From sequence record OL631483.1: a stretch of 64,000 nt of DNA. One strand, written 5' to 3'. Under the pieces are notes generated by a model. It searched no databases and had not been told where the DNA came from. It worked only from the letters and a program-made list of their open reading frames with translations. Positions 15,735-20,507 of this stretch are shown here, one piece after another (positions within the stretch are counted from its first letter, which is position 1; the number at the start of each line of letters is the position of its first letter). The DNA is from Escherichia phage ECML-363. The position numbers and the translations under genes were made by a program.

Positions 15735-15762
15735 ATGGGGACCGAAAGGTCCCCATGTTTTT
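15735..15762. terminator. Bidirectional hairpin terminator between gene 54 (+) and alt.-3 (-)
   Basis: ATGGGGACC-GAAA-GGTCCCCAT followed by TTTTT. Confidence 0.7.
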
Positions 15763-16051
15763 ATTTACGGAATGAAATAAAAGCAGCAACTGAAGAAACA
15801 GAGGTTTCTTCAATATAAACCTCAATTTTTACCGGAGCTTCTGACTCAAATTTACCTGTTACTACACCCTGAAAAATACTTTCAGTCTGTTCTGGCTTTG
15901 AAAAATTTTCAGAAGGAAAAATTCCAAACTTTTTATCGGTTCCGAAAATTTTAATAAATTCATCGTAAACTGCTTCATTAAAAGCATTATCAGCAGGAAT
16001 AACGCCTTCAACTACAAGTTCTTGACCTAAAAAGCGCAAAGAAGATTTCAT
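15761..16051 (-). CDS. Hypothetical protein (T4 alt.-3 position)
   Basis: 96-aa ORF with GAGG SD, directly downstream of an early promoter module. Confidence 0.7.
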   Translation of the reverse strand: MKSSLRFLGQELVVEGVIPADNAFNEAVYDEFIKIFGTDKKFGIFPSENFSKPEQTESIFQGVVTGKFESEAPVKIEVYIEETSVSSVAAFISFRK

Positions 16052-16082: not shown

Positions 16083-16112
16083 ACTATAACACAACACGAG
16101 GGACTTGTAAAC
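16083..16112 (-). promoter_or_regulatory. T4-type early promoter (GTTTACA -17 bp- TATAGT)
   Basis: Minus-sense GTTTACAAGTCCCTCGTGTTGTGTTATAGT; ~50-bp module nearly identical to the one at 31858-31909. Confidence 0.6.
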
Positions 16113-18169
16113 TACATTTTGAACTTTTTAGACATTCCGTTAATGTTAACCAAAGAAGCTAAGATTTGAGAAACTTCGTTTTCCTCTTCTTTTGATTCTT
16201 CTACAAGGAATTGATTAAATCCAGCCATTGGACGAACTTCACCAGTTTCCATTAGATGGTCGCCATCATATACTGATTCTTCTAATTGTTCAGAAGGAGG
16301 AACGATTGTACCTTCGATTAGATACTTGTTATAAGCAGTTTCTTTCATAAAGTAAGTACTTACTTTATTAATCTTCAGTAAAATTCCACGTGGTAGAATA
16401 ACTTCAGCTTCTGATGGAAATCCTGATAAATGACCCGGAACGATAACTTTAACTCGTTCAGCTCCTTTAATTACCATACCCACGCTAGTTTCAGCATCTT
16501 CATTAGCATATGTAGAATGACTACCCATATGCATCAAATCTTCTGCATCAACGGAACCTTCTCCTTCACCAGAAAATACTGCTCCGGAATCATCTAAGGC
16601 CATATAATTTTTACCATACTCACCAAAGATATTTGGTTTAAGTGATGTCGATACGAAGTTCTTGAAATAGAACATTTTATTTTCAATGTTATGACGCAAA
16701 GTTTTAAAAGTAACTTCTTGTCCACGGTAAAGTGTAGTTCCTGGAGGAAGAACTGAACCTTTAACGAATGCAGAATCAAGCGTCTCAATATGTTTAATAG
16801 CTCGTTCCATATATTCTTCACGGGTAGAATCTGGTTTACCCAAAAGGAACGAGTTCATTTCAACATATGAATCTGCGCAATAATCTTCAATTACGTCAGA
16901 TTCAGCCTGAGTTAATCCTTTTGGAGTTACTTCGGTGCTTGCATATTCATACGCCTGAGCAGCGGATTCATCAATTAATTTATAAATGCCATTCATGACA
17001 AATTGAATAATAGCTGTCTTTTCATCTGGCGTAGCTTTAGAACCTTTAACTAAATCATTGACAATTTTCTTAATAACATCAAAGCTATTAGAAATATTAA
17101 TGTCAGCAAGATCGCTTAAAATTTTATCAGTTTTGTAATTAAAGAAGTCTTTATTCTTTAAATATTCCTGGGAACCTTGATATGATGTATCGCTCTGCAA
17201 CTTGATAGATGGATCGCGTAAACGTGCATGGGCTAATGCAATATGATTTCGGAAACTTTCTAGTTCATAATCGCTAGATTTAAAACGAGAAGCACTTCTC
17301 ATACCGCCGATAGCTCCTTTGCTAAAGTTTGAACCAATCTGAATAACGCCAGAGTTCATTGGTCCTTCTGCTTTATATACCGGAACTTTAGATTCAAACT
17401 CTTGATATTTCTTAGCAGCGAAGCTATCACCCTGAAGTGAAGCATCAACAGTAGAATATTGAGCTTGTGCTGCTAATCGACGACTAATTTTAGTTTTCTG
17501 AATAACAGCTTGATCCGTACGCTTATCATTTTCTAAAGCAATAGAAGCAGCAACTGCGACAGCTTTAGGAACAGCATTACCTGTTTTAACGTCTACATAA
17601 ACATCACCAACCTTTGATTCAACTTTTGTGAATAACTCAGTTGAAATAGGAGGTACACCTGGAATGTCTTCTAAATTGGCATTTTTACGGTAAACCATAA
17701 TATATGCATATTTCTTATCATAGTCCCAGATTTCCTTTAAAAGAACATATCGACCTGCTCCTTTAGTACGTACTAAACGGTCAGCAATAACTTGCATTTG
17801 ACGAGCAGCGCCATTTGTTTTACTTTTTAGTACGCGGAATAGGCATGCATCAATTTTATACTGTTTCATTGTTTGAAGAGCAGTATCAAAAACCGCATTA
17901 ATGACACCAATTGGATTTCCACCCAAGTTTTTAAGCTTGACTAATGATAATTTCTCGTTGACACCTATCATTACGATATGCATCATTTTGTCGCCTGGCT
18001 TAACGTTTTTATTCGTATCACCGCCAGAGGTGTATGTACAAAATCGAAATCCAGGAAGAACGCTTTCTTCACCGGCTTGAATAGCAAAAATTTGAGGTAT
18101 TTTATGCTTAGGATTTAAGTTAACAACCGGCGCCGAAGCGCCGTCAAATAATTCTGTAATAAGTTCCAT
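16112..18169 (-). CDS. Alt-like ADP-ribosyltransferase, second paralog
   Basis: 685-aa ORF; N-terminus MELITELFDGASAPVVNLNPKHKIPQIFAIQ... parallels Alt; R-S-E ART motifs present (TLYRGQ, FVSTSL, SEAEVILPRG). Confidence 0.85.
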   Translation of the reverse strand: MELITELFDGASAPVVNLNPKHKIPQIFAIQAGEESVLPGFRFCTYTSGGDTNKNVKPGDKMMHIVMIGVNEKLSLVKLKNLGGNPIGVINAVFDTALQTMKQYKIDACLFRVLKSKTNGAARQMQVIADRLVRTKGAGRYVLLKEIWDYDKKYAYIMVYRKNANLEDIPGVPPISTELFTKVESKVGDVYVDVKTGNAVPKAVAVAASIALENDKRTDQAVIQKTKISRRLAAQAQYSTVDASLQGDSFAAKKYQEFESKVPVYKAEGPMNSGVIQIGSNFSKGAIGGMRSASRFKSSDYELESFRNHIALAHARLRDPSIKLQSDTSYQGSQEYLKNKDFFNYKTDKILSDLADINISNSFDVIKKIVNDLVKGSKATPDEKTAIIQFVMNGIYKLIDESAAQAYEYASTEVTPKGLTQAESDVIEDYCADSYVEMNSFLLGKPDSTREEYMERAIKHIETLDSAFVKGSVLPPGTTLYRGQEVTFKTLRHNIENKMFYFKNFVSTSLKPNIFGEYGKNYMALDDSGAVFSGEGEGSVDAEDLMHMGSHSTYANEDAETSVGMVIKGAERVKVIVPGHLSGFPSEAEVILPRGILLKINKVSTYFMKETAYNKYLIEGTIVPPSEQLEESVYDGDHLMETGEVRPMAGFNQFLVEESKEEENEVSQILASLVNINGMSKKFKM

Positions 18170-18172
18170 GAT

Positions 18173-20266
18173 TTATCCTTGAACGAACTTGTAAGGCATG
18201 TTTGTAATATCTATGCAAGACGCAATAATTCCAAGAGATGATTCTACTTTCTGTTTAATATTTGATGAAACAAATGATGCAAAGTCAACTCTGTCTTCTA
18301 TTTCAATATCACCTGTCATTGCAACCAATTCACCAGTTTCCATTAAATGGTCTCCATCATAGATTACCGATTCGGTGAGCTCTTCCGTGGTCATAACTTC
18401 AGCTTGAATGAGTTTTGTATTATTAGATGTTGTTCCGTCATTATTAGAAGCATCAGTTATTTTATTAACCTTGACCATCAATCCGCGTGGTAGAATAACT
18501 TCAGCTTCTGTTGCTATTCCGAGACTTCCTGGATATACAACATTAACTTTATGAGCTCCATCAATTGCCCATCCTATTTGAACTTTAACATATTCAGGAT
18601 TTTCTTTATACGCTCTTATTTCGTTTGGATTAATAGTTATTCCTTCTTCATTTTTATCAACTGTTAATTCGTTACGAGCTTCTGGTTCTAAAAGACCAAT
18701 ACCAGCATGTGTGATTCCAAAACGTCCAAAAATGATAGGAGTTAAAGAAGTAGATACAAAATTTCTGAAGTAGAACACTTTATTTTTAACTAACGCTTCA
18801 TATATAGGAGCAGTCATACTTTGAGCACGATAAACTGTAATGCCTTCTGGTATACGGTCACCATTTTCAAAAGCTGAATCTAAGTTATTTATAGCAGATT
18901 CAATTTCTTTTTCACTCATTACATCATATCGTTCTGGATTGTAACGACCTAAAAGAAGATTATTGATGTCAGTATATCCTGAACCGCAATATTCTCTAAT
19001 GCCACGCTTTTGTGATGGAGTATATTTAGAACCATCGCGGGCAATAGTAATATCAATCATTGGACCAGCACCAATTCCAGAAAAACTGTAAATCATTCGT
19101 TTGAGGAATTTAGTTTTTGCTGCGTTCCAGGAATTTTTAGTTATTTCTTCCCAGACTTCATCTGGTTGTCCTTTACGATTTTTATTATGATTAGCAAGCC
19201 ATTTATCTTTATAATCTTCAAAGAATTGATTTACAGCTGCTGCGTATTTCTCTAAACATTTTATTGAAGTAGTTGGTTCATTTTTAATTGCATTAAAAAT
19301 TACTTCTTTAATTTTTTCTGAAACTTCACCGACTTGACTCATTGGAAAGAATTTATAATCATAGTGAAGTTCATCTGCCGTTCCTTCAGCAATAATTTTT
19401 GCTGCCTTTGTTTTAGAAGCTAATGAATTAATTCCAATTTTCATTTCTTCTGCTTCGGGAATTAAAGGTGCAGTAGCTGGTTTATTAAAATTAGCTGCTG
19501 TAGATTCATACTTCTGGAATAATTCACTTTCAAATCTAGAAGATTCCAATGACTGACTTTGTGCAATTGCTCTACGGGAAATTTTAACTTTAACGATTAC
19601 GGCTTGGTCAGAACGTTTATCATTTTCTTGTGCAATAGATGCAGCAATTGCCTCATTTTTGGTTACTTGAGCTCCAGTATCTTTATTGATATAAACATCA
19701 CCGACCTTCGATTCAACTTTAGTAAAAAGCTCGGTGCTAATTTCTGGAACTCCTGGAATGTCTTCTAGTGATACATTTTTACGATGTATAAGAATATATG
19801 CATACTTTTTATCGTAATCCCAGAGTTCCTTAAGAAGGACGTATCTGCCACCTGAACGACTGCGGATGAGTCTATCAGCAATAAGTTGAATTTGTCGAGC
19901 TTGACCGGCGGTTTTAGACTTAAGAATACGAAGCATGCAGGCATCAATTTTATATTGACGCATTGTTTGCATTGCAACAGTAAAAACTGAATTGATATAA
20001 TTAATCGGGCTTGGACCAAGACCTTTTAATTTAGCAATTGAACCTTTAGCAGTTAATGTAAAAGGAACAATGTGCATCATTTTATCGCCCATCTTTAAAT
20101 CACGATTAGTATCACCTCCAGATGTATAGGTACATAAACGAAAGCCTGGTTGTTCAATTGCATCATCAACATGAACTGAAAAAATTTGTGGTATTTTCTT
20201 CTTTGGATTTAAGTTTGTAATCGGAAGAGTAGTATCTTCGTCAAATAATTCTGTAATGAGTTCCAT
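18173..20266 (-). CDS. alt: Alt ADP-ribosyltransferase (head-packaged, modifies host RNA polymerase alpha)
   Basis: 697/698-aa ORF MELITELFDEDTTLPITNLNPKKKIPQIFSVHVDDAIEQPGFRLCTYTSGGDTNRDLKMGDKMMHIV...; ART motifs TVYRAQ, FVSTSL, TEAEVILPRG. Confidence 0.9.
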   Translation of the reverse strand: MELITELFDEDTTLPITNLNPKKKIPQIFSVHVDDAIEQPGFRLCTYTSGGDTNRDLKMGDKMMHIVPFTLTAKGSIAKLKGLGPSPINYINSVFTVAMQTMRQYKIDACMLRILKSKTAGQARQIQLIADRLIRSRSGGRYVLLKELWDYDKKYAYILIHRKNVSLEDIPGVPEISTELFTKVESKVGDVYINKDTGAQVTKNEAIAASIAQENDKRSDQAVIVKVKISRRAIAQSQSLESSRFESELFQKYESTAANFNKPATAPLIPEAEEMKIGINSLASKTKAAKIIAEGTADELHYDYKFFPMSQVGEVSEKIKEVIFNAIKNEPTTSIKCLEKYAAAVNQFFEDYKDKWLANHNKNRKGQPDEVWEEITKNSWNAAKTKFLKRMIYSFSGIGAGPMIDITIARDGSKYTPSQKRGIREYCGSGYTDINNLLLGRYNPERYDVMSEKEIESAINNLDSAFENGDRIPEGITVYRAQSMTAPIYEALVKNKVFYFRNFVSTSLTPIIFGRFGITHAGIGLLEPEARNELTVDKNEEGITINPNEIRAYKENPEYVKVQIGWAIDGAHKVNVVYPGSLGIATEAEVILPRGLMVKVNKITDASNNDGTTSNNTKLIQAEVMTTEELTESVIYDGDHLMETGELVAMTGDIEIEDRVDFASFVSSNIKQKVESSLGIIASCIDITNMPYKFVQG

Positions 20267-20289
20267 CATATCCTCTCTAGTGTTTATTC

Positions 20290-20297
20290 TATTTATA
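20290..20297 (-). promoter_or_regulatory. Late promoter TATAAATA (minus strand) upstream of alt
   Basis: Plus-strand TATTTATA = minus-sense TATAAATA ~25 nt upstream of alt ATG; adjacent GGCC-CGAA-GGCC hairpin at 20303-20318. Confidence 0.55.
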
Positions 20298-20318
20298 AAA
20301 TTAAAGGCCCGAAGGCCT

Positions 20319-20507
20319 TTAATAATCTATTGGTAATAGAGTACGATATATTTCAAACTTTGGACCTTTTTCATAAGCATCAAAAGTTTCTGTGAATTTA
20401 TTATAAGCATATGCATCTATAAATTCAATCATGATTTGCGATACAGAAGTAGAAACATCTCCACCTTCTTTTTGAGCCACGACAATTGTTTCTAAGTAAG
20501 CTTTCAT
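20319..20507 (-). CDS. Hypothetical small protein between DNA ligase and alt
   Basis: 62-aa ORF overlapping ligase stop by ATGA. Confidence 0.5.
   Translation of the reverse strand: MKAYLETIVVAQKEGGDVSTSVSQIMIEFIDAYAYNKFTETFDAYEKGPKFEIYRTLLPIDY

Follow-up and report, generated by a model that had tools for sequence, protein, structure and literature searches.

How many Alt-type ADP-ribosyltransferases (ARTs) does the alt locus of a T4-like phage encode, and would two of them do the same work? Escherichia phage ECML-363 (sequence record OL631483.1) raises this question. We analysed a stretch of 64,000 nucleotides (nt) of its DNA, hereafter the window, in which two large open reading frames (ORFs) follow each other directly on the minus strand.

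18173-20266, minus strand: upstream alt gene, an ORF of 697 amino acids (aa) with its stop codon at 18173-18175
16112-18169, minus strand: downstream alt paralog, an ORF of 685 aa

A preliminary description of this DNA had proposed that both ORFs encode complete Alt-type enzymes. They are full-length Alt-type ADP-ribosyltransferase paralogs in tandem: both lie exactly where that description had put them, and their products align over their full length with 42% identity (BLASTP, E 7e-165). We consider it probable that the pair represents two co-transcribed arginine ARTs that are processed by the phage protease gp21, injected into the host and directed at different spectra of targets.

Two Alt-type proteins and their four parts

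The genes around the pair (29-48-54, alt.-3, the two large ORFs, alt.1, 30, 30.1 and onwards) stand in the same order as in T4, and 4.9 kb around it is 98.3-98.8% identical at the DNA level to Yersinia phage PYps32T, RB68, RB51 and RB14. The upstream ORF can be read from a first ATG at 20269, giving 698 aa, or from a second ATG one codon on at 20266, giving 697 aa; the latter start is the one used in the RB51, T2 and T6 annotations and yields the N-terminus MELITE. PHROG 802 ('Alt-like RNA polymerase ADP-ribosyltransferase') covers both copies end to end (852 and 907 bits), neither protein was matched by any NCBIfam model, and tblastn detected no third Alt-like gene and no ModA or ModB gene in the window.

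Each protein is best explained as a conserved N-terminal domain of about 240 aa headed by a propeptide of six residues, a highly divergent helical centre, an ART domain and an acidic C-terminal propeptide.

19553-20266, minus strand: upstream N-terminal domain (aa 1-238), PF26846 Tevenvirinae_ADPRT, including the propeptide site ITE-6
18176-18370, minus strand: upstream acidic C-terminal propeptide (predicted, aa 633-697), after the LTE-632 motif
17456-18169, minus strand: downstream N-terminal domain (aa 1-238) with the ITE-6 site, 67.5% identical to that of the upstream copy
16925-17455, minus strand: downstream central region (aa 239-415), all-helical in the AlphaFold2 (AF2) model and delimited by alignment
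16277-16924, minus strand: downstream ART catalytic domain (aa 416-631) with R482, S507-T-S509 and E587-x-E589, ending at the LEE-631 motif
16115-16276, minus strand: downstream acidic C-terminal propeptide (predicted, aa 632-685)

The likeness between the copies differs from part to part. The N-terminal regions, which had been called near-identical, are well conserved, but at 67.5% identity over aa 1-238 that wording overstates the case. The central regions (aa 239-415) share 17% identity and are as diverged as had been proposed; identity is 36.5% in the catalytic part (aa 416-631) and 44% in the C-terminal tail (aa 632-685). The PF26846 assignment was taken from precomputed records of homologs 88-98% identical to the window proteins. 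A structure model of the downstream N-terminal domain (aa 1-240, 17450-18169) reached a predicted local distance difference test score (pLDDT) of 84 and a predicted template modelling score (pTM) of 0.82.

Searched with Foldseek against viral models, the N-terminal fold retrieved Alt homologs together with weaker matches among large uncharacterised proteins of Ackermannviridae-like, Vibrio and jumbo phages, at probability 1.0 and a low template modelling (TM) score of about 0.5; some of these matches are annotated with zeta-toxin, deaminase or ParB/Srx domains. At the sequence level, four relatives of the domain, P0182 (1142 aa), P0183, P0180 and P0187, carry no Pfam ART domain. An exhaustive HMMER search for relatives of the domain gave only 73 representative clusters, nearly all of them ART-bearing. 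From the model comparisons, the Alt N-terminal domain may be a delivery module common to other payloads.

The third part of the proteins is best explained, from motifs and models, as a C3/VIP2-type mono-ADP-ribosyltransferase domain of the arginine-specific (ExE) kind. PF03496 (ADPrib_exo_Tox; curated gathering score 23.4) matches the upstream protein at aa 378-627 with 129.9 bits (9.6e-38) and the downstream protein at aa 416-620 with 70.5 bits (1.5e-19). The R / STS / ExE signature that the preliminary description had recognised is kept in both copies, as VYRAQ-478, FVSTSL-503 and EAEVILPRG-587 upstream and as LYRGQ-480, FVSTSL-505 and EAEVILPRG-587 downstream, and R482, S507, S509, E587 and E589 are invariant in an alignment of 22 diverse homologs. 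When this alignment was used as a profile, the arginine and the ExE aligned with the catalytic YRG and Q/EYE-L/V motifs of the solved C3-like and BECa toxins; the STS motif lies outside the aligned stretches. An ADP-ribosylating toxin turn-turn (ARTT) motif with ExE rather than QxE, in the R-S-E clade, points to arginine specificity.

The fold was examined for the downstream copy. Its AF2 model (685 aa, pLDDT 76) places the catalytic residues on strands 480-487, 506-509 and 589-592, and a Foldseek search of this model against the Protein Data Bank returned Vis, C3bot, Certhrax, VIP2, CDTa and iota Ia at probability 1.0, with TM scores (target) of 0.55-0.72 for single-domain toxins and sequence identities of 16-20%. 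Misplaced catalytic residues in the second paralog, the observation that had been named as counting against a second enzyme, were not seen in either the alignment or the model. No solved structure of an Alt protein was found by sequence: a single-sequence search gave a marginal CdtA match only, and the profile search reached toxin ART domains only.

Two other groups of enzymes differ from the window proteins. The C3, VIP2, iota, CDTa and Vis toxins (PF03496) share their catalytic fold and motifs, but act as secreted or binary-partner toxins and have neither the Tevenvirinae N-terminal domain nor gp21 propeptides. ModA and ModB are proteins of about 200 aa that are expressed early, are not packaged and lack the Alt N-terminal domain (PMC2988021 and general knowledge), whereas the window proteins have 685-697 aa, possess that domain and lie behind a late promoter.

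The second gene in T4 and its relatives

At the site of the downstream gene T4 has only the fragments alt.-1 (61 aa) and alt.-2 (67 aa), in agreement with the preliminary description; PHROGs 23015 and 15247 are these hypothetical T4 ORFs. T4 Alt.-1 (NP_049810) corresponds to aa 1-56 of the downstream copy with 95% identity and Alt.-2 (NP_049809) to aa 62-116 with 98%, and the downstream ORF is the intact counterpart of the two together. DNA alignment reveals two lesions in T4. One A is missing from an A5 run (window near 18006-18010), and because of this 1-bp frameshift alt.-1 stops and alt.-2 restarts. In addition, a deletion of 1,699 bp removes the central and catalytic parts, and its endpoints are the two copies of a 9-bp direct repeat, CTAAAAAGT.

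17822-17830, minus strand: first copy of CTAAAAAGT, left endpoint of the T4 deletion
16123-16131, minus strand: second copy of CTAAAAAGT, right endpoint of the T4 deletion

The T4 state is a frameshift plus a microhomology-flanked 1.7-kb deletion of a full-length gene. The repeat-flanked deletion junction rules out the duplication of just the first part of alt noted in the T4 record and likewise the 'apparent insertion in alt.-2' of the T6 record, where the difference is a deletion in T4.

An intact second enzyme had appeared in the preliminary description as something that this phage in particular retains; the GenBank records do not bear this out. In 401 phage records, T2, T6, RB51, RB10, RB27, AR1 and PP01 included, at least 80% of the downstream-gene segment missing from T4 is covered, with 93.6-98.8% identity among the matches listed. 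An uninterrupted T4-type deletion junction is seen in 91 records, and many of these are re-sequencings of T4. The intact pair is the majority state in Tequatrovirus and T4 is the exception. T2 and T6 both have the tandem of 697 and 685 aa, and the second Alt-like ART of RB51 (YP_002854151), T2 (YP_010073850) and T6 (AXN58232), like RB14 alt.-2, is the downstream gene of the window; those of RB51, T2 and T6 encode 685 aa at the same position with 95-99% DNA identity and show no substantive difference. In a large protein collection clustered at 90% identity, the downstream type has 772 members and the upstream type 641. The sequence finding itself is already known: the pair is annotated in hundreds of genomes, RefSeq names both genes 'Alt-like RNA polymerase ADP-ribosyltransferase', and alt.-1/alt.-2 as well as full-length alt duplications in T4-like phages have been listed (Nolan et al., 2006; PMC1524935).

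A tandem pair of 697 and 694 aa also occurs on a more diverged T4-like contig (L006:2242-6423), whose second member is 75% identical to the downstream copy of the window (93% in the N-terminal domain, 59% in the centre, 74% in the ART domain). The duplication must therefore be an old one that different lineages have kept. Both genes are under strong purifying selection: Nei-Gojobori comparisons of the window, RB51, T2 and T6 gave ratios of nonsynonymous to synonymous substitution rates (dN/dS) of 0.04-0.05 in the downstream gene and 0.05-0.08 in the upstream one; dS reached 0.21, and no sub-region, the centre included, exceeded a dN/dS of 0.12. Both reading frames have the same length in all four genomes. 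With its frame intact and under such selection, the downstream gene is therefore not a decaying pseudogene.

A reading of the downstream ORF as a paralog in decay or without catalytic function, kept perhaps as a structural protein or decoy and heading to the T4 state, could appeal to the loss of the gene in T4 and 90 other records and to its lower Pfam score. We regard it as highly improbable, given a 685-aa frame that is intact in the window, RB51, T2 and T6 at a dN/dS of about 0.05, catalytic residues that are all invariant, and 401 records that hold the gene intact. The alt pair of the window is best explained as an old tandem duplication, as in Tequatrovirus of the RB51, RB68, T2 and T6 type, with both copies functional.

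Exchange of the central and catalytic part

By position, the upstream gene is the ortholog of T4 alt, and its product is 70.6% identical to T4 Alt (NP_049811, 682 aa), the head-packaged NAD+:arginine mono-ADP-ribosyltransferase. T4 Alt has in common with the window its locus (alt.1/gene 30 to alt.-3/gene 54), its late promoter and the four-part layout, and shares with both window copies the R-STS-ExE motifs and the gp21 sites at ITE-6 and at a C-terminal LxE. Identity between the upstream copy and T4 Alt is about 99% over aa 1-240 and about 90% in the C-terminal tail. The central region of T4 Alt is kept by neither window copy (14-32% identity upstream, 5-17% downstream), and in the ART domain the identity to T4 Alt is about 66% for the upstream and about 36% for the downstream copy. 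With these differences, the documented targets of T4 Alt are not simply transferable to either window copy, above all because neither keeps the central region, which presumably directs the choice of targets.

18287-19547, minus strand: variable cassette of the upstream copy (gene nt ~720-1980, ~1.26 kb), central region plus ART, delimited by sliding DNA identity

Compared with T4 alt, the upstream copy has a different central-plus-catalytic cassette, exchanged between sharp borders. DNA identity is 95-100% over nt 1-720 of the gene, 33-83% over nt ~720-1980 and 96-100% from nt 1981 to the end. The upstream Alt of this phage is therefore not equivalent to T4 Alt.

Natural chimeras between the two types were found in public assemblies. 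Four proteins (P0003, P0004, P0005 and P0007) join a downstream-type payload, at 94-98% identity, to an upstream-type N-terminus, each through one crossover at about residue 53, 108, 190 or 222. Chimera loci are L007:4001-6061, L008:4001-6055 and L005:5001-7061; in the first two, a 110-kb metagenome contig assembled at k=99 and a 65-kb contig, the chimera is the sole alt gene between alt.1 and alt.-3. An assembly artefact is unlikely to lie behind the chimeras: the longest exact word common to the two window copies is 25 nt, and one chimera sits on the 110-kb k=99 contig. Judged from their crossovers, the single-gene chimeras appear to be tandem pairs collapsed by unequal crossing-over inside the conserved N-terminal domain.

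T-even internal proteins combine a conserved targeting part with a diverse payload and are trimmed by gp21 (PMC3012670; PMC9026906). T4 IPI, IPII and IPIII thus follow the same logic as Alt, with conserved parts for head assembly and a fast-diverging, host-directed payload; this is analogy and not homology. They are small and non-enzymatic with a capsid targeting sequence (CTS) of 10 residues, whereas Alt has a conserved domain of 240 aa and propeptides at both ends. By that analogy, the conserved parts of the Alt-type proteins would deal with head assembly of the phage and the variable part would face the host.

The two enzymes would most likely modify different sets of host proteins, because they share only 17% identity in the centre and 36.5% in the catalytic part. 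The copies might instead be redundant, acting on the same targets, for example Arg265 of the RNA polymerase alpha subunit, with the duplication raising nothing but dose. The ExE arginine-type motif is indeed common to both, the strings FVSTSL and EAEVILPRG are identical in them, and one copy suffices in T4. We nevertheless find redundancy quite unlikely: duplicates kept for dose ought to be made uniform by gene conversion, and the low identity of the central and ART parts, combined with strong purifying selection within each type, fits distinct specificities.

Transcription, and probable processing and injection

Both genes lie in a predicted late transcription unit whose elements were located as follows.

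20303-20320, minus strand: GC-rich hairpin aaaggcc-ttcg-ggccttt, read from the sequence, overlapping the alt.1 stop codon and followed by a T-rich run
20290-20297, minus strand: T4-type late promoter TATAAATA of the alt operon, 23 nt 5' of the ATG
18886-18893, minus strand: internal TATAAATA across codons A-I-N-N of the upstream ORF, 717 nt 5' of the downstream ATG
18170-18180, minus strand: gene junction with a Shine-Dalgarno-like AAGGA (18176-18180), TAA (18173-18175), a 3-nt spacer and then ATG (18167-18169)
16083-16111, minus strand: early-type sigma-70 promoter GTTTAC-17-TATAGT with TG, just past the downstream stop codon, for early expression of alt.-3 on its own
15761-16051, minus strand: alt.-3 (ORF and Pfam; DUF5498, 96 aa), last gene of the late read-through unit
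15735-15756, both strands: bidirectional intrinsic terminator between alt.-3 and gene 54 (terminator scan)

The order of hairpin, TATAAATA at 20290-20297, Shine-Dalgarno GAGAGGA and ATG is identical in RB51, T2, T6 and T4. The hairpin, which the consensus terminator scan did not flag, is likely a terminator that shields the alt operon from upstream early transcription, to judge by its stem and T-rich run. The two genes are joined as TAA-atc-ATG, with AAGGA 6 nt before the downstream ATG. Neither a promoter-like nor a terminator-like element was seen between them, nor was a MotA-box middle-promoter pattern upstream of the second gene; a sigma-70 promoter of its own was rejected, with matches at chance level (22 observed against 19.3 expected). 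The terminator at 15735-15756 is the first on the minus strand past the late promoter.

Co-transcription from one late promoter, the arrangement suggested in the preliminary description, is the most economical inference from this layout. The late promoter of the upstream copy stands, and the 3-nt gap fits co-transcription, with the caveat that an additional TATAAATA lies within the upstream ORF, 717 nt 5' of the second gene. This internal sequence is present in RB51, T2 and T6 and absent from T4 alt; the window holds 12 matches to TATAAATA against 9.4 expected, which leaves the internal one within chance. It may serve as a late promoter within the gene, or it may have arisen by chance.

Two neighbours of the pair deserve a brief description. 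The product of alt.1 (20319-20507, minus strand) matches PF24647 'Phage_blade' at 7.5e-29, and its stop codon lies inside the hairpin before the alt late promoter. In T4, mutants with a C-terminally extended Alt.-3 escape the CmdTAC defence system (PMC11618068); Alt.-3 of the window differs from that of T4 near the C-terminus (EETSVSS instead of EDSLVAS).

T4 Alt is a prohead-core protein present in about 40 copies per head (PMC5694885; PMC9026906) and is cut by gp21 at ITE-6 and LTE-619 to a mature form of 68.2 kDa (PMC5694885), a mass that we reproduced from the T4 Alt sequence. The first site, ITE-6 (MELITE), is kept in both window proteins. The C-terminal cleavage motif reads EELTE/SVIYDGDH in the upstream protein (LTE-632) and SEQLEE/SVYDGDH in the downstream protein (LEE-631), which fits L-x-E; E6 and E631 are invariant across the family in the 22-sequence alignment. 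The predicted mature forms have 70.1 kDa (upstream) and 69.1 kDa (downstream), and each maturation would free an acidic C-terminal propeptide. These motifs, together with the T4 precedent, make it plausible that the second enzyme is head-packaged and processed by gp21.

The second copy could also be a functional ART that is neither packaged in the head nor injected, acting late in the cytoplasm, or of which a minor fraction is packaged. Its gene has no adjacent promoter, its C-terminal motif is LEE and not LTE, and packaging is known for T4 Alt only. We hold this to be unlikely, seeing that conservation of the N-terminal domain and of both cleavage motifs extends without exception across the family, that transcription together with alt late in infection would coincide with head assembly, and that the chimeras place a downstream-type payload on an upstream-type N-terminus as the sole alt gene, which suggests the same delivery.

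In our preferred account, two injected arginine ARTs with different targets, both genes would be transcribed late from the single TATAAATA ahead of the first gene, the arrangement of elements being observed, in one message that would run through alt, its paralog and alt.-3 and end at the terminator past alt.-3. Both proteins would enter the prohead core, where gp21 would trim them at ITE-6 and at LxE-631/632 to about 69-70 kDa, and the mature enzymes would be injected along with the DNA, both steps by homology with T4 Alt. T4 itself has lost the second enzyme through the frameshift and a microhomology-mediated 1.7-kb deletion.

Several points weigh against this account. The downstream gene has no adjacent promoter of its own, which bears on its dose relative to Alt. 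T4 thrives without the second gene, which is dispensable at least in laboratory hosts, and the downstream ART domain scores below the upstream one against Pfam (70 against 130 bits). We found no virion proteomics or biochemistry of the downstream protein in the searchable literature. The case for divergent targets has sequence divergence as its single line of evidence, and T4 Alt, which ADP-ribosylates Arg265 of RNA polymerase alpha, is a promiscuous enzyme (PMC2988021), so that the target sets of the two copies may overlap substantially.

A broader proposal, which we put forward tentatively and with some doubt, is that the alt locus is a plug-in delivery system, in which a conserved N-terminal head-targeting domain and a C-terminal propeptide carry central-plus-ART payloads that are swapped by recombination, and in which the second payload, present in T2 and T6 and deleted in T4, modifies distinct host proteins at injection. 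If this were true, the targets of the second payload might include defence or stress-response factors, and the payload would help to account for the ways in which T-even phages are known to differ in host range and defence sensitivity.

What the analysis adds is not a new sequence discovery; it is the design of the genes, in which a conserved N-terminal domain and a C-terminal propeptide flank a divergent central-plus-catalytic payload. Knowledge of injected phage ARTs comes almost wholly from T4, a minority genotype without the second enzyme. The majority of T4 relatives, T2, T6 and many therapeutic or biocontrol isolates of Tequatrovirus among them, probably inject two different ARTs, neither of which has the central region of T4 Alt. 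If so, the target list of T4 Alt would miss what these phages do to their host in the opening seconds of an infection, and the biology of T4 Alt would not be representative of T2, T6 and most field isolates.

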